A stretch of DNA of 64,000 bases, taken from IMG/VR virus record IMGVR_UViG_3300025162_001855; one strand, given 5' to 3'. Shown piece after piece: positions 27,361 through 63,320 of the stretch. The DNA is from a virus. Taxonomy: Duplodnaviria; Heunggongvirae; Uroviricota; Caudoviricetes. Positions within the stretch are counted from its first letter, which is position 1; each line of letters begins with the position of its first letter. The notes below the pieces were generated by a model that saw only the letters and a list, made by a program, of their open reading frames with translations, ran no database searches and was not told where the DNA came from. The position numbers were made by a program, and so were the translations under genes.

Positions 27361-27957
27361 TTACTCGTCATCCTTGTTGTCATGATGCGTCCGAATTGGG
27401 CGCTTGGACATGATACGATTAATCTGTGCAAACTCCCACAGGCTCATCGGACCGTATGCTTGCACCTCACCATCTGGGCGACCATCGATGCCGGCATCCA
27501 TCATGCGGCCCCTGGTAACCAGTGGGCTGGCGCAATGGTCACCGTGTACGTGCCCGTACAGATGGAACGCACCATGATGCATATGATTCCACTCCAGCAT
27601 TGGGAAGTGGAACATGATGATCTTCTGCCCACCAACCCGAATCTCCTTGTAGTCCTGTACGCTGACAAACATGTCGCGCAGGTCCTTATTGGAATGGATA
27701 ACTTTATCATGGTTGCCAAAGATCAGATGCTTCTGTCCAGGCAGGCGGTTCATAATGCTACGGGCACGCACTGCATCACAGAAGAACACATCGCCCAGCA
27801 GGTAGACATGATCGTTCTGACCAACCTGACGCTGCCAGTTGGCAATCTGAATCTCGTCGTGCTCGGCAGCATCCTTGCCCATGCGGGTTTCTGGGCAGAA
27901 CTTCAGAATGTTCTTGTGCCCAAAATGATTATCACTCGTAAACCAAACCTTTTCCAT
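27361..27957 (-). CDS. Ser/Thr protein phosphatase-family metallophosphoesterase
   Basis: DNHFGH, GDxx and GNHD-like blocks (FGNHDKVIH) in the translation. Confidence 0.6.
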   Translation of the reverse strand: MEKVWFTSDNHFGHKNILKFCPETRMGKDAAEHDEIQIANWQRQVGQNDHVYLLGDVFFCDAVRARSIMNRLPGQKHLIFGNHDKVIHSNKDLRDMFVSVQDYKEIRVGGQKIIMFHFPMLEWNHMHHGAFHLYGHVHGDHCASPLVTRGRMMDAGIDGRPDGEVQAYGPMSLWEFAQINRIMSKRPIRTHHDNKDDE

Positions 27958-27971
27958 TTTCTTCCTATCCC

Positions 27972-28166
27972 TTATTCTTCATTGGACCACGGTCCATCCC
28001 AACAAAGCGTGTCGCATTGTGCTTGCTCCATTGCCTTGTACAGCGGTGCGTTGGTCTCGTACATCATCTTTACGTTATCGCAACAGACGCCAGAGAACCA
28101 CGGTTCTTTGCCGTAGAGGGCAACTACGCTCTCAACTACAGCAGCTCTATATTCGGCGAATGTCAT
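27972..28166 (-). CDS. small hypothetical protein
   Basis: ORF track only. Confidence 0.3.
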   Translation of the reverse strand: MTFAEYRAAVVESVVALYGKEPWFSGVCCDNVKMMYETNAPLYKAMEQAQCDTLCWDGPWSNEE

Positions 28167-28177
28167 ACTTATCTTCC

Positions 28178-28432
28178 TTACTCGCGCCCGCCGGACTTAA
28201 TTGCCAGCAGCGCAACCCTAACAACTTCGACAAGTTCCCGAGATTCATTTAGTACAGTGAGGAGTGCATCTGTTACTGCAACAACAATCCCACGACCAAA
28301 TTCGAGCAATCCATCACACACGATACCAAGTACCGCTAGCGGGACAGATATCAGCAGCCCCAACGAAACCACCGTGCGGAACCGCCACTTACTCTTCCCT
28401 GACCAAACACCAATATCTGACCATCTGCTCAT
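28178..28432 (-). CDS. small membrane protein
   Basis: ORF track; hydrophobic helices. Confidence 0.3.
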   Translation of the reverse strand: MSRWSDIGVWSGKSKWRFRTVVSLGLLISVPLAVLGIVCDGLLEFGRGIVVAVTDALLTVLNESRELVEVVRVALLAIKSGGRE

Positions 28433-28444
28433 TGCACTGTTTCC

Positions 28445-28714
28445 TTAAAACGGAATCTCATCAAAATCGGGTTCGGGGTCGTACACCTGCTGCCATTCAG
28501 GCTTGTCGGCCTCGGGAGCCAGATCGTACTCGTCTTCAATTCCGTCACCGGGATACGGCTGGGGCGGGCCCTTGTAATGCGGGTTCTGCTCGCAGGTATC
28601 GTAATCCGACCAAAGCCACTGTCGATCGGGATAATCCTGTCCCACGTTCCAAACCCATTCGCGGACTGCTTCTGCAACAGTGGCCACGCGATCCTCTTCG
28701 TGCCAACCGTACAT
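28445..28714 (-). CDS. small acidic protein
   Basis: ORF track; Asp/Glu-rich. Confidence 0.35.
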   Translation of the reverse strand: MYGWHEEDRVATVAEAVREWVWNVGQDYPDRQWLWSDYDTCEQNPHYKGPPQPYPGDGIEDEYDLAPEADKPEWQQVYDPEPDFDEIPF

Positions 28715-29046
28715 TACAGCACCTCCTCAAAGCCACAACCCGCGACGCGGAACGTGCGACCATCAACTTCCATCAGGTCACCCACCATCGACGAGCGCAG
28801 TCCGTAAACCACACCACGATGCACGGGTAGTTCCGCAACCACTTCAAGAAAGTCCCGGTCGTCGGGGTTGCCATCCTTGCGTGACCACGAACCCATAATG
28901 TTCTGGGTTGCAACCCACGCAATCTCAAGCATCGGGTCGACCATGTTGGGCAGCGTCTTGACCGTAACGTTGGCCACATGGGTCTTTTCCATGCCCGAAC
29001 CATCTTCGAGCGGATCCATGTGGAAAACCTTAATAACAGTGTTCAT
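28714..29046 (-). CDS. hypothetical protein; first gene downstream of the conserved promoter cassette (copy 1)
   Basis: ORF track; sigma70-like promoter about 32 nt upstream of the ATG. Confidence 0.4.
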   Translation of the reverse strand: MNTVIKVFHMDPLEDGSGMEKTHVANVTVKTLPNMVDPMLEIAWVATQNIMGSWSRKDGNPDDRDFLEVVAELPVHRGVVYGLRSSMVGDLMEVDGRTFRVAGCGFEEVL

Positions 29047-29077
29047 CGTTGCGTCCTTTTCCTTACCCTATGTTCGT

Positions 29078-29152
29078 ATGATACGGGATTTGGATCCAAT
29101 TTGCAACATCTAAATTCCCAATGATTTCAACAACTTATAAGTCATTGATTTT
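29078..29152 (-). promoter_or_regulatory. conserved promoter cassette, copy 1
   Basis: TTGCAA, 17-nt spacer, TATCAT, preceded by the conserved upstream element AATCAATGACTTATAAGTTGTTGAAATCATTG. Confidence 0.5.
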
Positions 29153-30029
29153 CAAGGAAACTTCGTATCACTGTAATTCGTCCCTGTTCGGACAACTTTG
29201 CAAACTCGCCCTTCCAGGGTTCAATCCAATCTAACAGCGGGTAATATTCCTCGTCAATCGTCTTGCGAAAATCCGGAGTCTGTATACGTTCGAGGAACTT
29301 CTCTTCCTTCATGCGCCCCAGGAACTTGGTCACCAAATAATATGGCGACTTGATCTTGAGTGCAATGTCCTTGCCGTATGCAACAAACCCTTCGTGCTTG
29401 CAAGTCTTGGCCTCCTGCACTACATCGGAGAAGCGACATACCTTCCACTCGGGGCGCAGGTATCCTTGCGCCTTGGCCACAGCGTCTAGAATTTCTTCAC
29501 TGAGCATCTTGCCAGTAGAAATTACTCGGGCTCCGATCAAATACGCTCCTAAGTTTTCCTTGATGATGTGTGGATCCGATTCGTCGCAGATCTCAAACAA
29601 CCAAGTCGTCGGAAATCCAAAGTGATGGGCTGGTACGAAACACTTGAGGTGCTTCTCAACCATTACAGCAAAATCCGAATCCAATGAACCAGTTGTCGAA
29701 TAAATGATATCATCTCGGGTACGGTCCCAAGTAATGGCACCCATGAACCCATTTACCTTCCGTACAGCAATAACCATTTCGTCACGCGGGATATCAACAC
29801 CGCGCTCAAAGCGATTGTATATCTTCTGGAATGGACGCACTACTACGTTCCAATCCGCGTCCACAACCAATCCACGACATTCTTCAAGAAGGTCGTTCCA
29901 CAGTGCATCGTAGAATACCTTGCGGGTATACTTGATGACATACAATCCCGGATACTTTGTTGACTCGCGACGAGTTATCAACTTTGGGTTGGCATCAATA
30001 AATTCGCGTAACTGTGCGATGTCAATCAT
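29142..30029 (-). CDS. T4 RnlA-like RNA ligase 1
   Basis: N-terminal similarity to the recalled T4 Rnl1 sequence (LEECRGLVVD...RPFQKIYN versus ALECRGIMFE...RPMEKFFN); candidate nucleotidylation lysine in RKVNGF; directly upstream of and overlapping the kinase gene. Confidence 0.5.
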   Translation of the reverse strand: MIDIAQLREFIDANPKLITRRESTKYPGLYVIKYTRKVFYDALWNDLLEECRGLVVDADWNVVVRPFQKIYNRFERGVDIPRDEMVIAVRKVNGFMGAITWDRTRDDIIYSTTGSLDSDFAVMVEKHLKCFVPAHHFGFPTTWLFEICDESDPHIIKENLGAYLIGARVISTGKMLSEEILDAVAKAQGYLRPEWKVCRFSDVVQEAKTCKHEGFVAYGKDIALKIKSPYYLVTKFLGRMKEEKFLERIQTPDFRKTIDEEYYPLLDWIEPWKGEFAKLSEQGRITVIRSFLENQ

Positions 30030-36476: not shown

Positions 36477-37853
36477 TTACTGAGCCTTAACGCGCTCTCG
36501 AATCAAGCTCAGGCTTTCCTCGCGTACCAGCTTACCATCTTCGTACACTACTTCAAGCACTGGATTGTGGACATGGTCACTACCTTCAATATCGGTGTGG
36601 TATGTATTGTTGATGTGATTGTAGTAGAGTTCCAAGCGACCCTTCTTTGACTTCTTGCCAAAATCCGTAACGGGATCCTTAAACACATCGCGCCATACGC
36701 CGTTCACCTTGACTGCGCTTGCCTTCATTGCAAACTTTTGCGTGTCCCGGTTCATGTGCTGGAGCAACGCACCACCCATACCAAACGCCACGTTATCCGC
36801 ACTGTAGCCCATCATCCAAAGCCTTGCGAGAATGTCCTTAATGCTCTGCTCGTTGATGCCGTCACCTTGGATGACACGAACATTGTTGAGTAGCTTGTAC
36901 CCATCTTTGGTTAGTGTGTGACCAAACTTCTTGTCCAGCAGTACCACCGAATGTGCAACAATGTCTGTTGGGTTACCCGAGTCCGGACGAACGACAAGCG
37001 TAGCACCACTGTCGATCACTTGCTGGCGTAGTGTACCACCCCAGATGTTCTCAATGGCGTTGAACAGATCGTAGCTGTCGGAAACTACTGCAACTAGCGC
37101 ACCGGGCTTGGCGAACTGCTTCAGCATATTTGCGTAAGCATCTTCCTCATGCTCCTTGCCCCAGCTGGTAATAGTGCTGTGTTCCGCTGCCGGAATACTA
37201 AAGCCCGCCATGTGCTCGTTGTAATACTTGCGGGCGAACATTAGCGCCGGAACGTTGTCGGTACCCTTGAAGTTTACAAGATGTGCAGCACCACCAATAG
37301 CCGCACTCTCCAGCGAACTTACGCCACGCGCACCAAAGTCGTGCAGCTTGAAGTCAAGACCATCGAGGTTGTTGGCACTGGTATCCAGTCGCTCCTTGAT
37401 GATCTGGCGAATGCTATGACTGATCGTTGCCACTGTGGTGGGATACCATACCGCACGAAGCAGGGCAGTCTCAACGTAGCTCGTCAACCAGGGCACTTCT
37501 GGGTCTGTGTTCTCCACCGTGACCAAAACGTTATGCGTTGGGACAATCGTTCCTTCGCGCACTGCCTTGATCTTGATTGGCAGAAAGCCATTATGCTGGA
37601 GAAGAATGTGCTTCCACCCTGCCTCATTGAAGGGCACACCGTGTAGCGCATACACTTCCTTCGCCTCCGCGATATCCTCGTATGTGATCGGCTTCAGCAG
37701 GTATTCCTTGATAAATGCCTGCAGGCCGAAAAATAGCGTGTGATCATATTCGCCCCCGCGTGACTCGATGTAACTGAATACATTGGTTGTACCTTCTGGG
37801 TACTGCGCGAAATGCGAAACCTTGTACGAATCGGTATTTAGAATCATGTTCAT
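36477..37853 (-). CDS. nadV: nicotinamide phosphoribosyltransferase (NAMPT, NadV-like)
   Basis: 458-aa ORF with conserved NAMPT blocks (DSYD, DGLDFKLHDFGARG, RPDSGNP). Confidence 0.8.
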   Translation of the reverse strand: MNMILNTDSYKVSHFAQYPEGTTNVFSYIESRGGEYDHTLFFGLQAFIKEYLLKPITYEDIAEAKEVYALHGVPFNEAGWKHILLQHNGFLPIKIKAVREGTIVPTHNVLVTVENTDPEVPWLTSYVETALLRAVWYPTTVATISHSIRQIIKERLDTSANNLDGLDFKLHDFGARGVSSLESAAIGGAAHLVNFKGTDNVPALMFARKYYNEHMAGFSIPAAEHSTITSWGKEHEEDAYANMLKQFAKPGALVAVVSDSYDLFNAIENIWGGTLRQQVIDSGATLVVRPDSGNPTDIVAHSVVLLDKKFGHTLTKDGYKLLNNVRVIQGDGINEQSIKDILARLWMMGYSADNVAFGMGGALLQHMNRDTQKFAMKASAVKVNGVWRDVFKDPVTDFGKKSKKGRLELYYNHINNTYHTDIEGSDHVHNPVLEVVYEDGKLVREESLSLIRERVKAQ

Positions 37854-38173: not shown

Positions 38174-39253
38174 TTACGCCCTGTTAATCATCTTAGATGC
38201 AATCGAGTAGTGGTCCTCGTACATCTCTGCGGTCATTGTGTAAAACTTAGAAAGTGGAACCCACTTGGCGCGTTCAGCATCATCACTTCCGCGTACCTTT
38301 GGTAGGTTGCGCTCGTGTAGCACAATCAGATATGCGTGTGTAATCGTGCGTCCGCGTTCACTGCGGTTGGGATGATCAAATACTTGTGAACCTTTGATGC
38401 TGGCACGCAGCACATCTCCATGTATCCGAATGCGAGTCTCTTCTTCGAGTTCACGAAGCATAGAATCTTCAATCCTCTCATTTGGACCGAGGAAGCCACC
38501 GGGCAATGCCCACAACCCCTTACCCGGCGCCATACGACGCTTGATGAGTAGAATGTGCCCATTGCAAATGACCACAGCGTCCGTTGTCACAAACACTGGT
38601 TGGAATGGTGCATTGGACCACATCTGCTTATAGTCCTTAAGGAACTTGTGTTCTTCACAGAGTGCGTTATTAAGGGCGGGGTTATTCTGGCGCCACGTAT
38701 CGATGAAATTCTTTACGCGCTCGGGCATAACATCTGCCGGTACCATCTTGTTACCAAACAGAATGTCACGGATGGTAGTCGAGTCCAGTGTATCGAAGTT
38801 TGGAACCTCAACAACTTCGTAATTTGGAAACATATCGAGATAGTAAGACGAATCGTCTTTGTGGTGGCCAATGATACAAACAGACTTGCCAACTGCCGTA
38901 TCATAAATGTTATCTAATTCGTTTTCGATTTCTTGCTGCACCATAGCAACCCACTGTTGGTCATTGTAGAGATCGTCTACAAGTGGTGCCGATATTGTGC
39001 CCGGGGGTAACATTGCAGCCCGTTCGTCATAAGTGAACGGGTTCTTAATGTTGCGTGCAATAAAGGAACTGCCGATGAGCACCAGGACGTTGTCCGAATG
39101 CTTTTTGGCTTCCTCAATCAACTTTTCGTGGGCATTATGGAATGGCTGAAAGCGCCCGATGATCACTGCTAGATCATAGCGCCTGGGTGTGATGGCCTTA
39201 TCGGACCATCCCATTGGGGACTTGTGTATATGAGCTGTTGTATTCATTACCAT
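38174..39253 (-). CDS. natV: bifunctional NMN adenylyltransferase / Nudix hydrolase (NatV-like)
   Basis: N-terminal nucleotidyltransferase motif GRFQPFHNAH and C-terminal Nudix box GGFLGPNERIEDSMLRELEEETRI. Confidence 0.75.
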   Translation of the reverse strand: MVMNTTAHIHKSPMGWSDKAITPRRYDLAVIIGRFQPFHNAHEKLIEEAKKHSDNVLVLIGSSFIARNIKNPFTYDERAAMLPPGTISAPLVDDLYNDQQWVAMVQQEIENELDNIYDTAVGKSVCIIGHHKDDSSYYLDMFPNYEVVEVPNFDTLDSTTIRDILFGNKMVPADVMPERVKNFIDTWRQNNPALNNALCEEHKFLKDYKQMWSNAPFQPVFVTTDAVVICNGHILLIKRRMAPGKGLWALPGGFLGPNERIEDSMLRELEEETRIRIHGDVLRASIKGSQVFDHPNRSERGRTITHAYLIVLHERNLPKVRGSDDAERAKWVPLSKFYTMTAEMYEDHYSIASKMINRA

Positions 39254-40756: not shown

Positions 40757-41092
40757 TCAACGACCTCGGGTCGAATCATTATTCTTCTCCAAAGCAACCA
40801 TGCCCATATTACTGATACCAAGATACTGTTTGCCGGTAACAATATCGGTAATAAGATACACACCGCGGTATCCAGTTGTGGACATATTATCCTTCAGTAC
40901 ATCAATCCTTTCAACCTTAAACCTTAATACATCAATTGATGGAATTATGGTTGGGTGCTGTGTTTGCTCGACCTGTCCTTGCAATCCTTTAAGGTGTTGG
41001 ATTGAGAGTTGGCGATCATCAGCATCGGGTTCTTCATGCGGAGATGAACAGCCAGATAGTAACAGTGCAGTGAGCAGAATGGATTTGTACAT
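40757..41092 (-). CDS. lipoprotein
   Basis: Signal peptide with lipobox LLSGC in MYKSILLTALLLSGCSS. Confidence 0.45.
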   Translation of the reverse strand: MYKSILLTALLLSGCSSPHEEPDADDRQLSIQHLKGLQGQVEQTQHPTIIPSIDVLRFKVERIDVLKDNMSTTGYRGVYLITDIVTGKQYLGISNMGMVALEKNNDSTRGR

Positions 41093-41890
41093 ATCCTGTA
41101 TTTAGTATCTCACGCGCACCGAAGCTGACGTTCTACGGATGCAATATCGCAATGCTCAAGTGGAATGACCACATTGACTCCGTTGATTGCCTTGATGACA
41201 ATGTATTCGGTAAGGCTCCGACCAAGGAGGAAGGATACCACCTGAGATGGTGTGGAAAGGGTACGTGATCGTGTGGGCCATTTCTTGTCAAAGACGTGAT
41301 ACATCATTAGCTCCATGGGCTCAAAAATTGAAGGTGGGCAGCGTCGTAAACAAGAGCGCCGCGTGCAAACCCAACGCGCCATCGTCGCGGGCTAATCTGT
41401 CGAATGACACCCGACCCCCATTCGGGCCACCAACGGTCGTAAACTAGAGTTCCCGACTTTATCTTATTCATGCTACTCATCCTTTGGTAGTTCCGGCAAC
41501 GGCATCCAGTGTGTAATCATATTATGCAACGGATTACTCCGTGATAGCAAGGACCATTGCGGACCATCATCTAGAACCCAGTACCATTGGACATTCATTG
41601 TGCAAGGTGGGGTAAACGTTAGCACCAGTGAATCGTGTTCCGGTTGATAATCTTTCATGCTGACCCACTTGCTCATAGTTTCTTTCCTTCACGGAGTACG
41701 GCGTAAACCAACTCCTGTACATCACTCGGACCTTCTTCACCGTAATACAGCCAACCATCGTCGGCTATTGCTTGCAGTGCCGTTGTCAGCCTTGCAACCT
41801 TTGCGTCATAATCGCAGGCAAGGACATATTCGCCGCGTTCGGCCTCTTCCATACCACCCGTAGTACAATTATATCGCTTCGTATCCATCA

Positions 41891-42091
41891 TTATCTCCCA
41901 CTAGATCCTGGAGTAGTGAACCAACCCCGAATTTCTTTATTACAGCATTGACAGCGCATCTTTTGATCGGTGTACCCACCATCTCCAAATCCCATGAATT
42001 CCCAACGGTGAATCCCTATCCTGCAACGTAGTCTCATAGCCTTCATTTCCCGTACTCCTGTCCGGCAAGGGTGGTGCGCTTCAAATTCCAT
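41891..42091 (-). CDS. small zinc-ribbon protein
   Basis: CRTG...CRIG...CQCC cysteine pairs. Confidence 0.3.
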   Translation of the reverse strand: MEFEAHHPCRTGVREMKAMRLRCRIGIHRWEFMGFGDGGYTDQKMRCQCCNKEIRGWFTTPGSSGR

Positions 42092-42445
42092 TCGTCCACA
42101 CCAATGTAGATGCGTCCCGGCAGCGGCTCACGAAAGCACCACGGGTCGTAGCAGGAACATGCAACCGGCTCCAGATCAGAAGCCCGTACCGGGAACACCA
42201 TGCGATCCTCACAGCGGACGAGAATATTTGCGGGATTCTGAAATGCGTTCATTTTCCTCCCTCCATCTGCACCGTGCAGCGTGGGCATTCTAAAACCATT
42301 GTGGTGTTCAATTGAAGCCCGTAACGCTCCGGCACGGCGTGTAGCTTAGTTCCGCAACTGTTGCAATGCGTTGGCGTCGGTGGCGCTGTTGCGACCAGCC
42401 ACGAGACACCTCCTAGAAGCGCCACAATCAGGCAAAGTAATGCGA

Positions 42446-42820
42446 TCATGATTTCGGCCCCGCCTCGGGCGCTTCGTCACAGCCGCACGGCCCTACTGGC
42501 AGCGCCGGGGCGTTATGCGTCGCGCAGTCGGATGCGTGACCATCACCGAGCGCAGCGGCGGCGGGCGGCAGGGGGATCAGGAAGTCCGAAAGCTGTTCGT
42601 TGGCGTCCCTATTGTGTAGGCATACGTACTCCACGAAATCGTTATGCGCCTCTATCGCGGCGCGGAGGGCGTCGCGGTCGGCAACGGCCCGCATAGCCTC
42701 AAGGATCTGGCGGTCGCACTGGCGCGTGATTACCTCCAACTCCGCCCGCGCTTCGTCGAGTTGGGAGCGGAGAAGATTCACCTCTCGTACGAGAGCCTCT
42801 ACGAATTGGTCACTCATTAT
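42446..42820 (-). CDS. coiled-coil protein inside the GC-rich island
   Basis: Start at MSDQFVEALVREVNLLRSQLDEARAELEV; the gene is GC-rich. Confidence 0.35.
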   Translation of the reverse strand: MMSDQFVEALVREVNLLRSQLDEARAELEVITRQCDRQILEAMRAVADRDALRAAIEAHNDFVEYVCLHNRDANEQLSDFLIPLPPAAAALGDGHASDCATHNAPALPVGPCGCDEAPEAGPKS

Positions 42821-43230
42821 GCGGCCTCCATTACCTTCTTCGGCACAAAAACGTACAGTCCACCAAAGCAAGTCAAGTCACCAACGTAGGTATCGAGCTC
42901 TTCGGTGAACTGGGACTGGGCCGTAGTGATGCGGTACACTGGTGTCCGACCAGTCTGACGCAGTGCATCCTTAAAGGAGTCGCCAACAATGATGTACTCG
43001 ACATCCGGGAGCGCCTCACGGGCCAGAAAGGACTGCGCGTTGAAACGGCACACGGTCCGATTCTTCTTGTACCGACCAGCAGTGCCGGTCAACTTTGCCG
43101 GAATCCAAACGTCGGTATCGCCATCGGGCATCCAATTGTTTCCGAGCTTGTACGCAAAAGCAAATCGACCGATCTGCTTCCCATCCACGTGAATCGAATC
43201 CTTGCGCATGGTGTACTGGTAAATGCCCAT
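42817..43230 (-). CDS. hypothetical protein (138 aa after start correction)
   Basis: Start at MGIYQY with a GGAG ribosome-binding site; the upstream 50 codons of the ORF look non-coding. Confidence 0.4.
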   Translation of the reverse strand: MGIYQYTMRKDSIHVDGKQIGRFAFAYKLGNNWMPDGDTDVWIPAKLTGTAGRYKKNRTVCRFNAQSFLAREALPDVEYIIVGDSFKDALRQTGRTPVYRITTAQSQFTEELDTYVGDLTCFGGLYVFVPKKVMEAA

Positions 43231-43231
43231 C

Positions 43232-43585
43232 TTACTTCTCCGAGAGATACTTAACAATGAACTTGGCTGCACCAAGGTAGTCGTTGTACTTGAAGAGGTT
43301 CCGATCCTGCCAAGCCCGCTCATTCGGCACGTTGGTGTTGAATTCGAACTCGCCCTTGTCGCCAGTGTACACAACGATGTCATCGCTGTTCCGGTTCTCG
43401 GAGAACGCTACCTTCTTGCCCTTCAGGCCATCAAACGACTTCTGGAGCGAAAAGCCCTGCTCACGGCAGTTAACGTACACGCGAAGATCGAGATCTTCGT
43501 CGTTCTTGGAACGCTTGGCCACCTTGCGGATCTCGGCGAGAACCTTCTTGGCCTTGGTGTTGTTGATGCAGTTGTAAACGCGCAT
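43232..43585 (-). CDS. hypothetical protein (117 aa)
   Basis: ORF track only. Confidence 0.4.
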   Translation of the reverse strand: MRVYNCINNTKAKKVLAEIRKVAKRSKNDEDLDLRVYVNCREQGFSLQKSFDGLKGKKVAFSENRNSDDIVVYTGDKGEFEFNTNVPNERAWQDRNLFKYNDYLGAAKFIVKYLSEK

Positions 43586-43595
43586 GGTGTTCTCC

Positions 43596-43847
43596 TTAGA
43601 CCACAGTCAGCTGGATTTGGAACGCGCCGTACGTGCGTCCGGTGCCGACAGTTTCGGCAATGTCCTTCGCGAGACGGGACAGTGTCCGGTCATCGTCGAG
43701 GCTTTCAATTGCGCTGCGCAGCGAAAGGTTCAGGGGCGCAAAGTCGCCAGCATTGCCGTCGCGTAGTGCCTTGGCAGTCGTGTAAAACGACACCGTGCCA
43801 TTAACGCGGACCAGCATCTTCTGGGACCCTTTGAGCTTTCTGTTCAT
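43596..43847 (-). CDS. hypothetical protein; first gene downstream of the promoter cassette (copy 2)
   Basis: ORF track; promoter and GGAG ribosome-binding site upstream. Confidence 0.4.
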   Translation of the reverse strand: MNRKLKGSQKMLVRVNGTVSFYTTAKALRDGNAGDFAPLNLSLRSAIESLDDDRTLSRLAKDIAETVGTGRTYGAFQIQLTVV

Positions 43848-43876
43848 TTGACCAATCTCCAGTTACCTTATGCTCG

Positions 43877-43955
43877 TATAATACGAGAATTTGGATCCAG
43901 TTGCAACAACTAAATCGTCAATGTTTTCAATGACTTGTAAGTCTTTGATTTGTAT
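43877..43955 (-). promoter_or_regulatory. conserved promoter cassette, copy 2
   Basis: TTGCAA, 17-nt spacer, TATTAT, preceded by AATCAAAGACTTACAAGTCATTGAAAACATTGACGATTTAGTTG. Confidence 0.5.
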
Positions 43956-43962
43956 AGAGATT

Positions 43963-44223
43963 CTACCAAACGCACTGCACTAGATCTTCTAGAATCTTTC
44001 GAAGCTCTTCGAGGTTCGATTCCAAAAAACGAATCGTTATAGAGAAGTGAACATCGGGTGCTCGACCTCCCCACCTTGCTGATTCATCTTCGGCGTCGCG
44101 ATTCTTCTTGAGATCCGCCAATAGCATTTCCTTGCCGGCAATGGTATTCCGGAGATTGGCAATTACTGTTTGGACATCCATCAGAAGTTTTCCAGTGCAA
44201 TGAACTTCTTGGGCATGTTCCAT
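43963..44223 (-). CDS. hypothetical protein
   Basis: ORF track only. Confidence 0.35.
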   Translation of the reverse strand: MEHAQEVHCTGKLLMDVQTVIANLRNTIAGKEMLLADLKKNRDAEDESARWGGRAPDVHFSITIRFLESNLEELRKILEDLVQCVW

Positions 44224-44411
44224 TCCTTCGGATAGTCGCCACGCTTTACCTTTTCGAGTCCAGCAGACGAGATAGCATACACCGAATGATCGTTTGGTTC
44301 GATCATTAGCACATCGAGATCACCATGTTCAGCGAGCTGTTCGGTAAGGGCCTTGATAAGTTCGGACGTTTTCATTTCAGGTACTCCAATATGCTTCGCG
44401 GCTTTGATCAC
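44181..44411 (-). CDS. hypothetical protein
   Basis: ORF track only. Confidence 0.35.
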   Translation of the reverse strand: MIKAAKHIGVPEMKTSELIKALTEQLAEHGDLDVLMIEPNDHSVYAISSAGLEKVKRGDYPKEWNMPKKFIALENF

Positions 44412-44604
44412 AGCAACCCGGTGCGGGTTGCTTTGGCAGGTCTACAAGGGCAACCGCAGCCCATGTATTGACCCCACGATAATTGCGCTTGTTTAGCGCA
44501 ACTGCACCACGTCGGGCGCCAACTAGCGTCTCGTAACGCTTGGCACCGAGGCTGTTGCCCTTGTAAGCAAAACCTGTGAGCGGATTGTAAACGGCGTACA
44601 TCAT
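44377..44604 (-). CDS. small hypothetical protein
   Basis: Start at internal Met (MMYAVYNPLTGF...); the upstream part of the ORF is a GC-rich alternative-frame artefact. Confidence 0.3.
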   Translation of the reverse strand: MMYAVYNPLTGFAYKGNSLGAKRYETLVGARRGAVALNKRNYRGVNTWAAVALVDLPKQPAPGCCDQSREAYWST

Positions 44605-45068
44605 GCTACCTCGTACTTGTCGTATAAGAACGACTCGTAATCGTCCTTGGCCTTGTCGGCCTTCTGCTCCTCGGTCAGCACCTGCTGCTCGAGGTAGTAT
44701 TCGTACGAGCACTCGTATTCTTCGCGAGCACGACGCGCATCGCGATCGACCTTGGAAGCCGCTGCCGCAGCAATGTACGCGGGGTCGGTCTCTTCGACAA
44801 CCCAACCTTCTTCGCGCATCTCTTCGCGGCCTTCGAACGTGCTCTTGCGCTGCTCGATGTCGGCGTGCAACTGCTCAACCGCAGCACGAAGCTGGGCCAG
44901 CGCCGCACGGAGGTCGGACACGCAGGTGAAGCCATCGGCGCAACCAACAATCCAACGCGGGCGGAAGCCATTCACATCCTTGTGGAAGTCGCTGTAGTAG
45001 CTGGCCACCGAGTTGTACTCGGCCGACAATTCCGGCTCCCCGGGAAAATTAAATTCGGTGTCGAACAT
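44601..45068 (-). CDS. acidic hypothetical protein (155 aa); downstream of promoter cassette copy 3
   Basis: Start corrected to Met-19 (MFDTEFNF) because the annotated start at 45122 lies inside the -35/-10 of the conserved promoter. Confidence 0.4.
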   Translation of the reverse strand: MFDTEFNFPGEPELSAEYNSVASYYSDFHKDVNGFRPRWIVGCADGFTCVSDLRAALAQLRAAVEQLHADIEQRKSTFEGREEMREEGWVVEETDPAYIAAAAASKVDRDARRAREEYECSYEYYLEQQVLTEEQKADKAKDDYESFLYDKYEVA

Positions 45069-45100
45069 TTGTTTGTCCTGCTTCCTTATCCTGTAAACGT

Positions 45101-45175
45101 ATATTACCTGATTTGGATCCAAATTGCAACAACTAAATCTTCAATGTTTTCAATGACTTGTAGGTCGTTGATTTA
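45101..45175 (-). promoter_or_regulatory. conserved promoter cassette, copy 3
   Basis: TTGCAA, 17-nt spacer, TAATAT, preceded by AATCAACGACCTACAAGTCATTGAAAACATTGAAGATTTAGTTG. Confidence 0.5.
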
Positions 45176-45466
45176 CTTGGAGTTTTTAAGTATATACATT
45201 AAAATGTCCGGAGAGTCAACCACAATCACATCCTCCGGAACACGAAGCGTCTCCCGCCAAAATCCGTCTGTTACCCATTTACGGGTGTTAGTATCCCATC
45301 CGTGGCCTTGGTTGTGGATTCGAAGGCGGACATATTTTGGTGTGCTGTTTACTACCACGCCAACACGGAGAGCATTTCGGTAATGTGTCACCACCGATGC
45401 TTGCATTGCAATAGGATTACCCATCAAGTCTAAATGTACTGGAGGAGGGGCTTTTACCTTGGCCAT
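45173..45466 (-). CDS. hypothetical protein; paralog of 52971-53318
   Basis: Shared blocks VVTHYRNALRVG and SPDILMYILKNS with the ORF at 52971. Confidence 0.4.
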   Translation of the reverse strand: MAKVKAPPPVHLDLMGNPIAMQASVVTHYRNALRVGVVVNSTPKYVRLRIHNQGHGWDTNTRKWVTDGFWRETLRVPEDVIVVDSPDILMYILKNSK

Positions 45467-45469
45467 AAA

Positions 45470-45670
45470 TTATCGATTATTTTTCTCGGCTTCGTACCTT
45501 GCTTTGAGATCCTGTTCAAGTTCGTAAAACAATTCCCCGAGCGTTTGCAATCCCGGAATTGGTGTGGGCTCGATTGTTTGATTGGGATAAGTGATGCTGA
45601 CCACCTTGGCCTTCTTCTTGGTTGCTAGTTTCTTCTTGCGGTGTTCGTCAAAGTTAACTACGTTACTCAT
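45470..45670 (-). CDS. small hypothetical protein
   Basis: ORF track only. Confidence 0.3.
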   Translation of the reverse strand: MSNVVNFDEHRKKKLATKKKAKVVSITYPNQTIEPTPIPGLQTLGELFYELEQDLKARYEAEKNNR

Positions 45671-45987
45671 AGACTCGATCCTACTGCTGATTCGGCCTTG
45701 GATTTAATGAGAATGCGGGCCGACTTGTATTGCTCATAAAGATCCTTGAGCATTGGATGAGTTTCTGCTTCTTCCTCTTCTTTCATCTTACGCTGGATCC
45801 AGGCGAAAATCTTGGGGTCCATTGTTACTGTAAGCAACCCTGGAGTGATTGGCGTAACCTCGGCATTGAAGCCCATGACTTCAAATCGTTGAGCCGAGCT
45901 GTTCCACTTTACTATTCCGGACTGATAACAACTACCAGTGGAAATTGTTGCTTGAATACCGTTTTGGCCGAATCCCGATCCAATCAT
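45667..45987 (-). CDS. hypothetical protein
   Basis: ORF track only. Confidence 0.35.
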   Translation of the reverse strand: MIGSGFGQNGIQATISTGSCYQSGIVKWNSSAQRFEVMGFNAEVTPITPGLLTVTMDPKIFAWIQRKMKEEEEAETHPMLKDLYEQYKSARILIKSKAESAVGSSL

Positions 45988-46319
45988 TTGGCTTCCCCTT
46001 CCTTCTTAATTTCTTCAAGTTCTTGTGCAGTGTAAATCGAATTGTGAATTTCTAAATAGCCGGCCATTTGTGCTGCGGTATATGCTTCCATCCCAAACCC
46101 AAATACATCATAGAGCACATAGCGGTATGAGCCACGGAGTTCAATATCACCCTTGTGAATACGGCGAACTACTGCACAAAATGCTTGGAGTTGCTGTTCC
46201 TTGGTCAAAGAGTTCCAATATTCTTCGCTGAGATCTTCTTCTTGGGCCATGACAGAATTAAACACTTCGCTAAAGTCCTGGAGTGCATCCACAAGCGATT
46301 TCTTTTTATCTTCTTCCAT
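45984..46319 (-). CDS. hypothetical protein
   Basis: ORF track only. Confidence 0.35.
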   Translation of the reverse strand: MEEDKKKSLVDALQDFSEVFNSVMAQEEDLSEEYWNSLTKEQQLQAFCAVVRRIHKGDIELRGSYRYVLYDVFGFGMEAYTAAQMAGYLEIHNSIYTAQELEEIKKEGEAK

Positions 46320-46322
46320 ATG

Positions 46323-46574
46323 TCACCACTTCTTGTTGTTCATGTAATGTTCGAGTTTCTTAATTCTTCGATCACCGGCAAGCATCAGCTCTTCACCATC
46401 AACATAACCTTCTTCGGTGAGTAGCTTTACCAGTGCCAACAATCCGCCAAACTCATCTGTGAGCTTATCCATGGTTTCTTGGGATTTTCCAAAGCGGTGA
46501 ATCTTGGCAACTTCTTGCACAATATCCCCGCATGTTCCCTGCAATAGCACCATCAATTCTTGTTCTCTGTTCAT
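46323..46574 (-). CDS. small hypothetical protein
   Basis: ORF track only. Confidence 0.3.
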   Translation of the reverse strand: MNREQELMVLLQGTCGDIVQEVAKIHRFGKSQETMDKLTDEFGGLLALVKLLTEEGYVDGEELMLAGDRRIKKLEHYMNNKKW

Positions 46575-56232: not shown

Positions 56233-56652
56233 TTACGCCACCACCTCGTACGGCTTGTCCCACTTGCCCACGTGGAGGTCAACGTACCAGCCCACATCAA
56301 AGTAATCGATCTCCGACCGACTGTTGTCGTGGTTGCCGTCGTTCAGCGCAGCAAACGCCTCGCGCAAGAACTCCTTGGCCTTGCCATTGAAGTGGTCCTG
56401 GTACCAATACTTGTTGACGTCCAAGTACCGAAGTCCGGCCATATCCTTCATTGTCTGCGACTCACCAACCGTATTGCGGTAGTTGCCGATAAAGTCGATT
56501 GGGCCCGACTTGAGTGTCAAGCAAAGCGTCATGCGGTTGCGCACTGCAATAGTGCCCTTCACGCCGTACTTCTTGAGCACCGCCTTAATCTGGGGTGCGA
56601 GGCGTGCCTTGAGATCCTGACTAACGTATGCCATCTTCATGCCCTCCGGCAA
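56233..56652 (-). CDS. hypothetical protein
   Basis: ORF track only. Confidence 0.4.
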   Translation of the reverse strand: MPEGMKMAYVSQDLKARLAPQIKAVLKKYGVKGTIAVRNRMTLCLTLKSGPIDFIGNYRNTVGESQTMKDMAGLRYLDVNKYWYQDHFNGKAKEFLREAFAALNDGNHDNSRSEIDYFDVGWYVDLHVGKWDKPYEVVA

Positions 56653-56831
56653 TCATCATAACCAGCAACGCGAACCACATACGACTTCTGCTCCGTCTTA
56701 CAAAACGGGCAGTCGAAAGTCACATGGTCCGCACCATTCATCGCTTCTTCAACATTCTTGATCTTGAAGTCCGCAGTATGCACGGGCTCGCTGCAAGTCT
56801 CGCACCAAGCCTCATAGTGTCCAGTACCCAT
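56637..56831 (-). CDS. small zinc-ribbon protein
   Basis: Start at MGTGHYEAWCETC; CxxC...CPFC pairs. Confidence 0.3.
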   Translation of the reverse strand: MGTGHYEAWCETCSEPVHTADFKIKNVEEAMNGADHVTFDCPFCKTEQKSYVVRVAGYDDCRRA

Positions 56832-57415
56832 CTTACTTCGCCTCCAGCGCGTCGTTGGCAATATTGTAAATGTCCGCATACGTGTCCGTGTCCGAACCAC
56901 AGAGCTCGTATGGCATATCCTTGATCTTCTGGAGTGCAGCGCGAAGCCGGGCAATTTCTTCCTTCTGCGTTTGGATCGTGTCCATCGTCTTTTCCTTACT
57001 GTCCATGCTCGTAGTATACCCGATTTGGACAAAGAAATCAACTACTAAATGTTCAAAAGAATCAACGACTTATTTGGATTCTACGGTTGTTTTGGCAGCG
57101 TTTCTACGCAATTCTTCAATTGCAGCATGGAATTTGGCCAGGGTATCTTCCCCAACTTGTACACCGGCTCGCGGATCGGTCGAATCAATTGTCAAAGTGG
57201 GCTCTTTACTAGATCCCGTCTTTGGCTTGGCGTGATAGTCATAATATGTGCTCATGCAAAATCTCTCAAAATAAACAGGATGGCTGAGTTTTACTGACTC
57301 AGCAACAGATTCGGTTACTGCCGACCAGTGTTGACGATATAGCCTGTCTCGCGACAGTCGTCACATCAACGCGTCAGTATTTGGTTTGCTGAACTCATCC
57401 TTAGTTTTTTACTTA

Positions 57416-59415: not shown

Positions 59416-60069
59416 TTACTTGCTGATGTTGCGCCTTGCCTTTTGGTCGGCTATCCATTTTGTAGCAGCCGGACGATTTGGGGGCGTGCGGACAAACTTG
59501 TCCAATTCTTTTCCGTAATAAGACAGATCTGGATACTCCTCACCGCTGTTGTCCACGATGAGTAGCTTGTTGCCAAATATGCGCTGAAGATCGCCCAAGT
59601 TGTCATTGACCTCTTGGTGCATCTGTTTCACCAAACTCGGATCAACTCTTCTGGTGCGGAGCTCGTTGCGGGTGATTGCGGTCTTGAGGTCGGTGTTAAC
59701 GAAAATGGCCATTGTCTCATAACCCAAATCTTCGAGTAATTTTTTGGTTTGCTTCAAACGATCGATCTTGCGACCGGTACCATCGATAATCATACCCAAT
59801 CGATGTTGTAAAAAGAGTTCAAATCTCTTGTCGGTTTTGTTACCGGCGTGCCAATATAGTTCCTTGGCGTAGTTACCGGTGATACCGGCTTTGGACATGA
59901 GTAGGGTATAGAAACGATCAATATCAACTGTACGCAACCCGGTGCCACCAAGTAGCTTATTGGCTATGGTTGTCTTACCCGATCCCGGACCACCAAGAGT
60001 AAACACGGCCTTGAATATGCCCGGATCATTTATACCTTCGATTAAGTTAGCCCCAGTCATCATAGTCAT
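59416..60069 (-). CDS. P-loop kinase (zeta-toxin/Pnk-like NTPase fold)
   Basis: Walker A GGPGSGKTT and IIDGTG block; start chosen at an internal Met to limit overlap with the upstream gene. Confidence 0.45.
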   Translation of the reverse strand: MTMMTGANLIEGINDPGIFKAVFTLGGPGSGKTTIANKLLGGTGLRTVDIDRFYTLLMSKAGITGNYAKELYWHAGNKTDKRFELFLQHRLGMIIDGTGRKIDRLKQTKKLLEDLGYETMAIFVNTDLKTAITRNELRTRRVDPSLVKQMHQEVNDNLGDLQRIFGNKLLIVDNSGEEYPDLSYYGKELDKFVRTPPNRPAATKWIADQKARRNISK

Positions 60070-60967
60070 CCATCCAGTCAATAAAATTTGCGTCCGGTTT
60101 CCCACCATTAAGCATTGGAATAATCATATCGTCGTACATAGAATCGTCAATGTATATAGCCGAATTGCACTGAATCATAATTTCGTGCCCGGATTTAATT
60201 GCCTTAGGCAAACCCATATCAACCAAGATGTACTTCTTAACTGCTGGCACACTAAAGAATTCTTCGCCGGGCAACTTGCGCATCTTGGCGGCTTCTCTTC
60301 TATAATATAGTTGTCGGGTATCTAACCATCTTCTCTTATTGGCTTGTTTGGAAAAATTCTTGAGTTCCTGGAAATATTTTTTGGCATTGGGATCTTTTTC
60401 CCGTCGGGCTTTTGTGGCCTTGTCGTCGAGCTTGTCAATTAACGCCATATACTCGTCGCGTGCCGCGCGGAAATCATCGTCGGCCTTTAGATACACTTTG
60501 GCAATTTTTGAATTTAAGAAATAGTTCCAGGCACCCATCTCGGTTGAATCATTGGTCCAATCGCGCCACCGTGTGTTCCATGTGTAATGGAACTTACCCT
60601 GTGGGATTACTACCCATGTTTTCCCAAATGTTTCTGCTAGAGATTCGTCGCCGGTAACAAACATTGAATTGTTTCTATTGGCAATACCCCCAGCAACTGC
60701 AATCAGTTTATTGAACATTTCGTGCTGTGAGGCATCGGAATCTTTTGGCCTACGATTGTCACGAACTGCACGAATATATGCATAGTTATTATCACCAGCA
60801 TCCGAACCGCGATACACTCCTATCTTTCCATTATCTGTTTGATTCAACCATGGACGGGCAGTTTTTTTGATCAACGCAACAAGTTTGGATGCGGCTTCGT
60901 GAGCTTTCTTTTTTGTAAGGCCACCAATAACCTTCTGCGGAGCGTAGCTGATTTCGTTGAGCTTCAT
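60047..60967 (-). CDS. member A of the tandem paralogous family (306 aa)
   Basis: VYRGSDAGD...RNNSMFVTGDESLAETFGKTWVVIPQGKFHYTWNT core shared with 60972, 61694, 62439 and 22891. Confidence 0.5.
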   Translation of the reverse strand: MKLNEISYAPQKVIGGLTKKKAHEAASKLVALIKKTARPWLNQTDNGKIGVYRGSDAGDNNYAYIRAVRDNRRPKDSDASQHEMFNKLIAVAGGIANRNNSMFVTGDESLAETFGKTWVVIPQGKFHYTWNTRWRDWTNDSTEMGAWNYFLNSKIAKVYLKADDDFRAARDEYMALIDKLDDKATKARREKDPNAKKYFQELKNFSKQANKRRWLDTRQLYYRREAAKMRKLPGEEFFSVPAVKKYILVDMGLPKAIKSGHEIMIQCNSAIYIDDSMYDDMIIPMLNGGKPDANFIDWMDDYDDWG

Positions 60968-61697: not shown

Positions 61698-62442
61698 ACT
61701 GCGGACCTTCGTAATTCGGCTTGCACCCCGGCGGTTTTATACATTTCTTCGGAGACATACACCGCAGCATCACACTTGATCATTACTTCGTGATTGGTGT
61801 GTAAAGCATTTTGCAGGCCGGTGTTAATATCAAAAAGGTTTTTAACTTTAGCCAGGTCATATGTCTTTGGATCGTCAAGTGGGGCCAAATATATGTAGCC
61901 ACCATGACTGTGCTTCTCGACAAAACGCTTCTTTGTATACCTTGCAAGCTCGTCGGCTTTCAACATGAGAAGATCTTCATATGGTGGGCTCCACGCATAT
62001 TCAAAATTACCAATTGGGAAGATGGCATACCTATCACCGTAATAACCAGCGGAGCCATAGTCACCAACAAATATGCTATTCGACCGAGTAACTGGCGATT
62101 TGATTAACGATAGCATTGCATTAAAGGCATTGTGCATTTCCATCGATGATCCAAGTGGCAGTCTATCCGGTCTAGTCTTTCTGACAAAGACATGACCAGT
62201 TGGCCTTGTGTATTAATACCACGCCATGCAGTAACACCGCCGCTGCCGCCGTTACCGGTTAATTTGATCCAACGTGCGCAATGTGTTCGCAAATAATGTA
62301 CCACCAAACCAGCATAGTGACTCAATGGCAGTGAGGGATCAAAATCTATTTCTGGAACGGACTGTGGCTTATATGGTGTGGAGTCTGTGGCCTTCTTGGC
62401 TCTCTCGATTGGGCCGTCTTCAAATAGTTCCATTATCTTCAC
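61694..62442 (-). pseudogene. member C of the paralogous family, frameshifted
   Basis: ORF 62104-62442 carries the N-terminal AWRG...ERLDRID region and ORF 61694-62143 carries the HNAFNAML...RSNSIFVGDYGS...FPIGNFEYAWSP core in another frame; together they span the length of member B. Confidence 0.45.
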
Positions 62443-63320
62443 AGTATCAAATCTCTTACATATTGACCATAAAAGGTTTTGTTGATGTACAAAATATCCG
62501 ATCCGGAAATCATAACCTCGTGCCTACTCTGAATAGCATCGGCAAGGTAACGGTCGACAATAATGGATTGCTTGAGTTTATCCAAGTCATATACTTCGGG
62601 CTTTAAAATGTTCGGCGAATCATAATTCAAACTTGCCATTGCCCTAGCAATTTCGACACCCCTTGGTCCTTTAAGGTTCTCGATATCTTTCTTAAGATTG
62701 TTAATGCGGTTTATCGACGGGCCGCCGGCGTACTGTATGCGCTCTAATTCCCTAGAATATTTTGCAATCTCGATTTCAATCCATTCTTGCACCTCTTCAT
62801 CGCTCATCTCTTTATATTCTGGTTTCATCAGATGTCGCATCTGAGTATTCTTGAAGTTAATGGTCCAGTCATCAAAATATGGACTCCATGTATAATGGAA
62901 ATTGCCAATTGGGAATACTGTGAACGTATCACCATATTCGGTTGTTGATACTGTGCTGCTGGTGCAAAATGCCGCGTTGGATCTGTTGGCTGTACCACCG
63001 GCTAGCTTGATGAGCATGTTGAATGCATTGTGTCTGAATTTTTCAGTATCGCGGGGTTCACGATCTGTTCTAACATCCCGAATGAACGCAACTGCACCAC
63101 CAGTGTGTCGCACACCACGATATAGTGTTTGATCATGCGGATTGACATCGGCGAGATATGGTTTGCAATTTTTGTTAATGAATGCTGCAAGGCCCGCTGC
63201 TACCTTCTGGGCATCTTCGAAGTGCATAAGGCGGTTAATGCCGACAAGCAAGTCGTCGGCAAACGGGACTCCGGGTACAGCCTTGTTTTCGGCTTCTATT
63301 AAGAATTCCGAGGCTCTCAT
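62439..63320 (-). CDS. member D of the tandem paralogous family (293 aa)
   Basis: LYRGVRHTG...RSNAAFCTSSTVSTTEYGDTFTVFPIGNFHYTWSP core. Confidence 0.5.
   Translation of the reverse strand: MRASEFLIEAENKAVPGVPFADDLLVGINRLMHFEDAQKVAAGLAAFINKNCKPYLADVNPHDQTLYRGVRHTGGAVAFIRDVRTDREPRDTEKFRHNAFNMLIKLAGGTANRSNAAFCTSSTVSTTEYGDTFTVFPIGNFHYTWSPYFDDWTINFKNTQMRHLMKPEYKEMSDEEVQEWIEIEIAKYSRELERIQYAGGPSINRINNLKKDIENLKGPRGVEIARAMASLNYDSPNILKPEVYDLDKLKQSIIVDRYLADAIQSRHEVMISGSDILYINKTFYGQYVRDLIL

Follow-up and report, generated by a model that had tools for sequence, protein, structure and literature searches.

The stretch of DNA analysed here (the window) comprises 64,000 nucleotides (nt) of the IMG/VR virus record IMGVR_UViG_3300025162_001855, assigned to the Caudoviricetes, and contains an island rich in guanine plus cytosine (GC) at 42049-45044. 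We read this island as two neighbouring modules of accessory genes that were probably imported from phages of ~57-64% GC, each behind a cassette resembling the promoter-early stem-loop (PeSL) elements of T4-type phages, and give this reading a probability of roughly 0.68. A plastic, ORFan-rich region of a jumbo phage would host both modules, genes g1-g2 behind cassette c3 and genes g5-g10 behind cassette c2, each would be transcribed leftward from its own cassette of ~100 nt, and the composition of the imported genes would not yet have drifted towards that of the resident genome. The cassette would most likely serve in two ways, providing ready-made, host-RNA-polymerase-dependent and probably early expression of the imported genes and, as a dispersed direct repeat, supplying homology for the insertion, swapping and excision of modules, as proposed for PeSLs.

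Twelve tightly packed minus-strand genes (g1-g12), with overlaps of the ATGA/TAATG type and plausible ribosome-binding sites (RBS), were curated from the sequence of the island and its left boundary. A first-pass annotation had described the interval 42250-45060 as GC-richer than its flanks and, when sliding-window GC and codon-usage checks were run, this proved correct, with 54.6% GC against 45.4% (standard deviation 1.9%) in same-size non-overlapping windows and a rank of first among 1224. The most GC-rich stretch of the window was placed at 42049-45044 by a change-point/maximal-segment analysis; the right edge had thus been located accurately, and the left edge lies ~200 nt further to the left, at the stop codon of g10. 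The island is not the single block that had been described. Block A (42049-43829, 57.0% GC) spans g10 to g5 and block B (44393-45044, 59.2% GC) spans g2 to g1, and between them lies a trough of 43.5% GC (43830-44392) that contains the second cassette copy and the ordinary-GC genes g3 and g4. The edges of both blocks coincide with gene edges to within ~20 nt, and the gene-wise composition steps at g2/g3 and g10/g11 are sharp. GC at third codon positions (GC3) reaches 0.63-0.77 in g1, g5-g8 and g10, against 0.47±0.06 in long genes elsewhere, and all codon positions are shifted, GC at first and second positions (GC1 and GC2) by ~+0.08 each on average and GC3 by ~+0.20, proportions which we take to fit residence in a genome some 10 GC points richer. 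With base composition and codon usage that differ significantly from those of the resident genome, and with sharp boundaries, the region shows one of the attributes expected of a horizontally acquired island.

The overlapping open reading frames (ORFs) that the first-pass annotation regarded as high-GC artefacts, at 44603-44929 on the plus strand and 44675-44971 on the minus strand, do exist, and their GC2 of 0.70-0.74 and negative codon log-odds are the signature of out-of-frame translation. Gene g1, which overlaps both, displays the order GC3>GC1>GC2 and a positive codon score. An independent gene caller, applied to one of the public contigs of this phage, placed genes on the minus strand alone in this region and recovered all of g1-g12 except g9, in agreement with the view that these frames are spurious. 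A naive longest-ORF gene model was dropped because it chose spurious plus-strand ORFs within the island; length-based ORF calling fails in GC-rich inserts of this kind, where spurious antisense ORFs beat the true genes.

A direct indication of foreign origin came from g8. Its closest homolog lies on a contig (L003) of 63.6% GC on which all genes have GC3 values of 0.75-0.88 and the first gene is a phage DNA polymerase fragment. The two proteins are only 64% identical, yet 35 of the 39 shared four-fold sites (90%) carry the same base, against a saturation expectation of 39%. The alignment is mosaic, the 3' part that encodes a C-terminal motif being about 91-93% identical at the nucleotide level. 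Constraint acting on the nucleotide sequence was considered as a cause of this identity and rejected, because within the motif segment g8 matches L003 at 21 of 24 synonymous sites and a third carrier (L004) at just 9 of 21. Given this comparison, the identity between g8 and its L003 homolog therefore points to recent common ancestry. The motif was found at 19 further loci, seven in bacterial genomes and 12 on IMG/VR contigs, with a median GC of 58.8% and 15 of the 19 at 55% or above. The bacterial loci belong to Delftia, Beijerinckiaceae, Sinisalibacter, Sphingomicrobium, Blastomonas and two metagenome-assembled genomes, and include Sphingomonadales and Rhodobacteraceae genomes.

Family regressions extended this argument to two further genes, g6 and a phrog_10415 gene in a GC-rich segment elsewhere in the window (56233-56640), both with a GC3 of 0.77. 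Within the g6 family GC3 follows flanking or resident GC with a slope of 2.0 and a residual standard deviation of 0.048, and the window copy deviates with z=5.4. The phrog_10415 family (n=80, slope 1.67, r=0.75) gave z=3.3 for the window copy, and none of the 80 relatives was as deviant. The observed GC3 is the value that the regressions expect for a genome of 57-59% GC. A GC-rich codon bias intrinsic to these families was rejected, since their homologs in other phages follow the GC of their own genomes. The closest relative of the cargo thus lies in another lineage of matching composition directly in the case of g8 and indirectly, through the regressions, in the case of g6 and the phrog_10415 gene. 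Horizontal acquisition, as the first-pass annotation had suggested, is supported by the gene-wise GC shift, the synonymous-site kinship of g8, the GC-rich carriers of its motif and the deviation of g6. The further suggestion of one acquired module bracketed by cassettes is better replaced by at least two modules of mixed origin, each headed by a cassette.

The cassettes form a repeat family (D3) of four ~100-nt copies, c1 to c4, which start at 29059, 43859, 45082 and 53999 and show pairwise identities of 69-78%, with c2 and c3 78% identical. On the coding strand each presents, in order, an AT-rich palindrome (AATCAAnGACyTAyAAGTyrTTGA), a conserved ATTTAGnnGTTGC box that contributes the first four letters, TTGC, of the -35 element TTGCAA, a 17-nt spacer, a -10 element TAtnAT, an RBS and a start codon. 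Cassette c3 (45082-45181, minus strand; nhmmer E=6e-26) has the palindrome AATCAACGACCTACAAGTCATTGA, a ATTTAGTTGTTGC box with the -35 TTGCAA, a 17-nt spacer that includes TTGGATCCAA, the -10 TAATAT and the RBS AAGGAA, and heads g1-g4. Cassette c2 (43859-43958, minus strand) carries the palindrome AATCAAAGACTTACAAGTCATTGA, the promoter TTGCAA-N17-TATTAT, which was also recovered independently in an unbiased promoter scan, and an RBS, and heads g5-g10 and the genes beyond. Cassette c1 (29059-29158, minus strand) heads the GC-rich genes 28714-29046 (GC3 0.65) and 28445-28714 (GC3 0.61), and c4 (53999-54098, minus strand) has the same palindrome and an ATTTAG box with another promoter core, TTGACA-N17-TAATAT. 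A hidden Markov model (HMM) built from the four copies retrieved a degraded fifth, c5w (56989-57093, minus strand), with the right half of the palindrome, ATTTAGTAGTTGATT, a 17-nt spacer and TATACT. The four full copies and the degraded one lie within 28 kb of ORFan-rich DNA in which most neighbouring genes are without a family match, and their promoters match the sigma-70 consensus at 9-10 of 12 positions. Copies 2 and 3 had been noted at the right side of the island, and both are present there. They do not bracket it: c2 lies inside the island and c3 just beyond its right edge, each heading one GC-rich block, and together they form a direct repeat, with a separation of 1223 bp, on either side of g1-g4.

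A second, perfect 10-bp palindrome, TTGGATCCAA, occupies the spacer between -35 and -10 in c1 (29090-29099) and c3 (45113-45122), and in c2 (43891-43900) with one mismatch. By its position it could be a candidate operator for a promoter-overlapping repressor. The same sequence occurs once more at 53093-53102, inside the coding region of 52971-53318. The product of that minus-strand gene, two genes downstream of c4, is paralogous to the small protein of 45173-45466 (minus strand), which is encoded immediately upstream of c3 (31% identity, E=2e-14), and this similarity suggests that cassette-adjacent genes are duplicated or exchanged within the genome.

Cassettes and GC-rich DNA proved to be associated on one side only. 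The 700 nt downstream of c1, c2, c3 and c5w have 53-57% GC, which places them in the top 2-6% of windows, and on the upstream sides GC is unremarkable (permutation p ~0.001). Four GC-rich blocks, with ends at 29013, 43829, 45044 and 56952, leave a gap of 30-46 nt to a cassette; these include the segment behind c1 (27435-29013), which ends 46 nt from it, and the segment behind c5w (56134-56952), which holds the phrog_10415 gene. The first gene behind each cassette has a GC3 of 0.65 (c1), 0.70 (c2), 0.74 (c3), 0.49 (c4) and 0.69 (c5w), against a background of 0.47, and the nine cassette-less genes just upstream of c3 have values of 0.39-0.56. For comparison, the DNA behind twelve further strong sigma-70-like sites of that strand has ordinary GC (0.42-0.50), so the effect is tied to the cassette and not to promoters generally, and the idea that GC-rich DNA follows any strong promoter was rejected.

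GC-rich segments (52.6-53.2%) also occur away from the cassettes, at 20953-22436 over tRNA genes, at 36689-37671 in the nicotinamide phosphoribosyltransferase (NAMPT) gene (GC3 0.60) and at 50632-51446 in a DUF2828 gene; either separate acquisitions of greater age or strong conservation of the genes could account for them.

An exact-pattern scan located the palindrome AATCAAnGACTTATAAGTyrTTGA at 53 loci on JGI metagenome contigs of 30-57% GC, where we estimate that chance would give fewer than one match to a pattern of ~42 bits. Several of these loci have DUF2828, NAMPT and other genes in common with the window at ~50% identity, and the loci therefore appear to come from related large phages that make up a broad clade. 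A near-perfect TTGAC[AT]-N16/17-TATAAT, matching the consensus at 11-12 of 12 positions, accompanies the palindrome at a distance of 20-80 nt on one side in 36 of 42 distinct loci. Since the palindrome is symmetric, the metagenomic loci were oriented by this adjacent promoter, and downstream GC exceeded upstream GC in 21 of 27 oriented loci (0.451 vs 0.417; p=0.0004). The metagenomic palindromes form hairpins of 10-13 bp (-8 to -12 kcal/mol), usually followed by T-runs (TTTT or TTAT), and have a terminator-like look; the one variable stem position shows no covariation. No isolated phage was found to carry the palindrome, the matches being partial and non-significant, and no Rfam family matched the region.

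At six loci (L036, L038, L042, L047, L049 and L052) a second, partial copy (TTGTAAGTCATTGAT) follows the full palindrome by 25-40 nt, just before the -35 element, and these TTGTAAGTCATTGAT repeats echo the AAGTCATTGAAAwCATTG half-site repeat of the window. Palindrome and half-sites together suggest a multi-site protein-binding array. Both strands of the palindrome also fit the IHF consensus, WATCAANNNNTTR, a fit that is partly built into the search pattern and serves as a lead only. The palindrome AATCAAnGACTTATAAGTyrTTGA beside a near-consensus sigma-70 promoter might be a dedicated 'docking site', recognised by a phage recombinase or regulator or by host IHF and not a generic terminator, that mediates module exchange in a broad uncultured clade of large environmental phages of 30-57% GC, apparently largely freshwater. 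We put this forward tentatively, as a proposal with a greater chance of being wrong than right; if true, it would account for the build-up of foreign GC-rich genes precisely on the downstream side of the palindrome.

The recurrence of g1 behind a cassette bears on whether such units are mobile. Homologs of g1 on two metagenomic contigs, P0007 on L001 (78% identity) and P0008 on L002 (48%), each have cassette-like sequence directly upstream, with the palindrome almost intact on L002. Their GC3 values are 0.78 and 0.67, and they stand amid lower-GC neighbours without a counterpart in the window. Because these neighbours differ, the unit of cassette and g1 appears to travel, or to persist, independently of its surroundings. 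Where g1 and g7 have more remote homologs in contigs of low GC, the GC3 of these is natively low as well, 0.33 and 0.46.

Several observations nevertheless weigh against import. The synonymous divergence of g1 is near saturation, with four-fold identities of 45% (31% expected) to the L001 homolog and 31% (29% expected) to the L002 homolog, and g1 and both homologs have kept a GC3 of 0.67-0.78 throughout. Because high GC3 persists across this divergence, simple recent import would not be the whole explanation for g1, and either repeated import of related GC-rich versions or selection or biased conversion maintaining GC3 behind the cassette would have to be invoked. No donor was found for g1, g5, g7, g9 or g10. 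The genes behind c4 are of ordinary GC, which makes that cassette an exception. At their left edges the GC-rich blocks end in seamless gene overlaps of the ATGA type with no remnant of a cassette. The window palindromes have folding energies of -5.8 to -9.6 kcal/mol and the coding strand shows no U-tract, and because the hairpin is weak and lacks this tract, terminator activity, one half of the analogy with PeSLs, is doubtful in the window. Finally, neither an island-less variant nor a close relative was found, and hence no empty site or recombination junction was seen: the 24 longest public contigs of this near-clonal phage all share one arrangement around the island, scans of IMG/VR with g1, the NMN adenylyltransferase (NMNAT) gene and a long cassette pattern gave nothing, and the relatives at ~50% identity are fragments, none of which carries island genes and in which gene order differs overall. 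With the island present in every one of these 24 contigs, we infer recombination at the cassettes and have not observed it.

The strongest competitor of import is adaptation of codon usage in place. Native genes behind early promoters would have been selected for G/C-ending codons, either because their translation comes first and draws on the tRNAs of a GC-rich host at a time when the phage has yet to build up its own (at least 42), or simply because they are very highly expressed. The maintenance of high GC3 by g1 in three lineages at near-saturated synonymous divergence would fit such selection, and the genes that come first behind the cassettes show the effect most strongly. The g6 and phrog_10415 genes are raised almost solely at GC3 and keep an AT-type amino-acid content; g6 is rich in Lys and Asn, which have AT-rich codons. 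The milder excess of downstream over upstream GC across the 27 metagenomic loci is likewise general, and the large tRNA bank and the best matches to phages of GC-rich hosts fit a codon usage that diverges from the host's. On the other hand, none of the twelve strong sigma-70-like promoters on the same strand is followed by GC-rich DNA, and c4 has no effect. GC1 and GC2 are raised as well in most island genes, the edges at g2 to g3 and g10 to g11 are sharp and gene-wise and not graded, GC3 is not elevated in the homologs that g6 and the phrog_10415 gene have in other phages, and g8 has its nucleotide-level kinship with the contig of a GC-rich phage. On balance we regard adaptation in place as rather unlikely.

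Enrichment driven by recombination appeared clearly less probable still. Here the cassettes would be hot spots at which GC-biased repair or conversion raises the GC of adjacent DNA without any foreign origin, a scheme that accords with the one-sided GC-rich DNA abutting four of the five cassettes and, as a continuing local process, with the lasting high GC3 of the cassette-adjacent g1 homologs. We know of no demonstration of GC-biased conversion in phages. The effect is moreover strictly downstream, reaching as far as 1.8 kb and ending at gene boundaries, and such enrichment would explain neither why g8 matches a GC-rich contig at synonymous sites nor why most island genes are ORFans. A point in its favour is that elements of the PeSL type are documented as recombination sites in T4-type phages. 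The simple forms of both codon selection and biased repair are weakened by the lack of effect at generic promoters, the gene-wise edges and the family regressions; both are kept as rivals because g1 retains its high GC3 at saturation. Chimeric metagenome assembly, in which GC-rich fragments of another organism were joined into a phage contig, might be suspected from the uncultured source material and the sharp compositional jumps, but is effectively refuted by the joint presence of island and flanking proteins in 48-53 independent assembly blocks, the same neighbourhood in 24 of 24 longest contigs and an unbroken series of genes over the boundaries, with stop codons overlapping start codons.

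Import of modules behind a shared cassette has its closest precedent in the PeSL cassettes of T4-type phages, as described by Arbiol et al. 2010 (PMC2839356) and Comeau et al. 2014 (PMC4122927). A PeSL is defined there as, in order, an AT-rich region, a stem-loop, a sigma-70-like -35/N17/-10, a Shine-Dalgarno sequence and an ATG (PMC4122927), and the four aligned window copies have the same composite intergenic order of parts. Like PeSLs, the window cassettes occur as several dispersed copies amid small ORFans, with c5w as a degraded 'half' copy, and they stand before unrelated genes and, with the same gene, in different contexts. PeSL mini-circles of 400-1400 bp are reported to arise between direct-repeat copies, and the 1223 bp that separate c2 and c3 around a small module fall within this range. 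PeSLs are further characterised by a stem-loop that terminates transcription effectively, by strong early promoter activity with the sigma-70 RNA polymerase of the host, and by indels and replacements at the cassettes when related genomes are compared; the recurrence of cassette and g1 among unrelated neighbours on L001 and L002 is in keeping with the last of these. There are also differences. The window phage does not belong to the recognised T4-type phages; among cultured phages it comes closest to Rak2-like jumbo phages, at about 36-38% amino-acid identity. PeSL stems are lineage-specific, with G/C-run stems in RB49/phi1, whereas the window cassette has a sequence-conserved AT-rich palindrome common to contigs of 30-57% GC. 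The window hairpin is weak and without a U-tract, and the spacer of c1-c3 holds the further palindrome TTGGATCCAA. The PeSL text consulted (PMC2839356 and PMC4122927) makes no mention of a link to GC-rich cargo, and PeSLs of jumbo phages outside the T4 group are not described in the literature searched.

The window cargo also recalls morons in being accessory, provided with its own promoter, inserted between resident genes, compositionally distinct and perhaps patchily distributed. Morons, as reportedly described by Hendrix and colleagues in lambdoid phages, are said to be extra genes with their own promoter and terminator and an atypical base composition. Classical morons are single genes of temperate phages, expressed from the prophage. 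In contrast, the window units are multi-gene, reside in a presumably lytic jumbo phage and share one repeated cassette, and they have no downstream terminator of their own, g2/g3 and g10/g11 being contiguous or overlapping so that the units run on into the resident operon. A third comparison is with the hyperplastic regions or 'ORFanages' of large myoviruses, for example T4-like cyanophages (PMC4503421), in which small fast-evolving genes of unknown function are clustered, as they are in the window, and gain and loss are concentrated in particular regions of the genome. The window island, by contrast, is fixed in all sampled contigs, with no gain or loss event observed. The locus thus extends a familiar kind of phage mosaicism to a new lineage; what is unusual is the degree to which the cassette is conserved.

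Turning to the individual genes, all on the minus strand, g1 (44601-45068; 155 amino acids (aa), pI 4.4, predicted all-helical, GC 58.8%, GC3 0.74) comes first behind c3 and has the conserved core YYSDFHKD..G.RPR ... KSTFEGRE..R..GW..EETDP. The start of g2 (44377-44604; 75 aa, or 74 aa by the independent caller; basic, GC 54.8%), at the left end of block B, overlaps the g1 stop (ATGATG). Between the blocks lie g3 (44181-44375; 64 aa, 47% GC), whose N-terminus matches phrog_10692, and g4 (43963-44181; 72 aa, 47% GC). Behind c2 the first gene is g5 (43596-43847; 83 aa, basic, GC3 0.70), followed by g6 (43232-43585; 117 aa, phrog_6319 family) and g7 (42817-43230; 137 aa, GC3 0.65), a predicted alpha/beta ORFan. 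Gene g8 (42446-42817; 123 aa, pI 4.5, GC 64%) encodes a mosaic of an Ala/Arg/Glu-rich helical N-terminus, probably coiled-coil, and a C-terminus with the invariant motif GDGHASDCxxHNAPALPVGPCxC. Next come g9 (42249-42449; 66 aa), with a hydrophobic N-terminal segment and CxxC...CxxC, and g10 (42043-42252; 69 aa), which together form the left end of block A. ATGA overlaps join g8/g9, g9/g10 and g10/g11, and g11 and g12 (41673-42046), of ordinary GC, continue the same operon and mark the left boundary of the island. The acidic and coiled-coil proteins that the first-pass annotation attributed to the island are confirmed in part: g1, and g8 with its helical N-terminus, are acidic and coiled-coil-like, and several other island proteins are basic.

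Most of the island proteins are ORFans, and g6 alone has relatives among 50,697 phage records. In 5.8 billion proteins, g1, g7 and g8 have 4-6 homologs each, all metagenomic, and the four of g7 are diverged. Searches of the island against Pfam, NCBIfam, PHROGs, PDB sequences and Rfam gave g6 (phrog_6319) as the sole match besides weak or partial ones, and AlphaFold models of g1 (pLDDT 77) and g7 (pLDDT 69), followed by fold searches, gave no functional lead. The ~20-residue His/Cys motif of g8, HASDCxxHNAPALPVGPCxC (42446-42547 in the window), is invariant among its carriers (L003, L004 and L068-L086), where it sits on otherwise unrelated N-terminal regions of phage and prophage proteins, mostly of GC-rich Proteobacteria. 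No Pfam or PHROG family covers the motif, which may be a small metal-binding module shuffled between proteins. The phrog_6319 family to which g6 belongs is a widespread hypothetical protein of large myoviruses that often adjoins NMNAT. In Klebsiella phage VLCpiM5a the phrog_6319 gene directly follows the NMNAT gene (L060, 3977-4318), and features under the match suggest the same order in several PVP-SE1-like phages. In the window NMNAT and NAMPT lie ~4-6 kb downstream of g6, and a functional link of g6 to phage NAD metabolism is possible. The island proteins as a group would probably act in host take-over or counter-defence.

The window is a view of 64 kb of an approximately 333-kb genome of ~46% GC, and its genes lie nearly all on the minus strand. 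A bank of 42 minus-strand tRNA genes occupies 900-22070, large even for jumbo phages, which covers nearly all amino acids and includes three tRNA-Met(CAT), Ile(TAT) and Ile(GAT); ORFs of ~218 aa are interspersed in it at 7507-8163, 8225-8881 and 9830-10486. NAMPT is encoded at 36477-37853 and the NMN adenylyltransferase/Nudix protein (NMNAT) at 38174-39253. The window also encodes a Ro/TROVE-like DUF2828 protein. T4-like accessory genes are present too, for two RNA ligases, a Pyr_excise domain like that of endonuclease V and a phosphatase domain of the PNK3P family, and the 64 kb show no structural or replication core gene. Three paralogs of the uncharacterised family phrog_11975 (E=1e-29 to 1e-41) are found at 22891-24099 on the plus strand, one of the few plus-strand genes of the window, and at 60047-60967 and 62439-63320 on the minus strand. 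The NAMPT of Ralstonia phage RsoM2USA shares 60% identity with the window protein, and the best cultured matches of the other accessory genes, at 36-38% aa identity, are in Rak2-like jumbo myoviruses such as GAP32, CBB and Munch. A nucleotide search with 41000-46500 gave no match among the 50,697 phage records. The exact island proteins recur on public metagenomic contigs of up to 332,959 bp, in the 48-53 blocks of independent assemblies from ENA, JGI and Logan. Distant cultured relatives, the lack of a nucleotide match and the recurring contigs together identify the window, as judged by these comparisons, as part of an uncultured but recurrent jumbo phage that is distantly Rak2-like.

Most genes of jumbo phages are small ORFans, and how they arrive and come to be expressed is poorly understood; the locus described here provides a concrete picture of both. 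If the cassette is a shared adaptor for recombination and expression, the 'modular shuffling' model developed for PeSLs would extend beyond the T4-type phages, and the cassette would offer a sequence tag for recently imported, probably host-interaction genes in metagenomic phage genomes.

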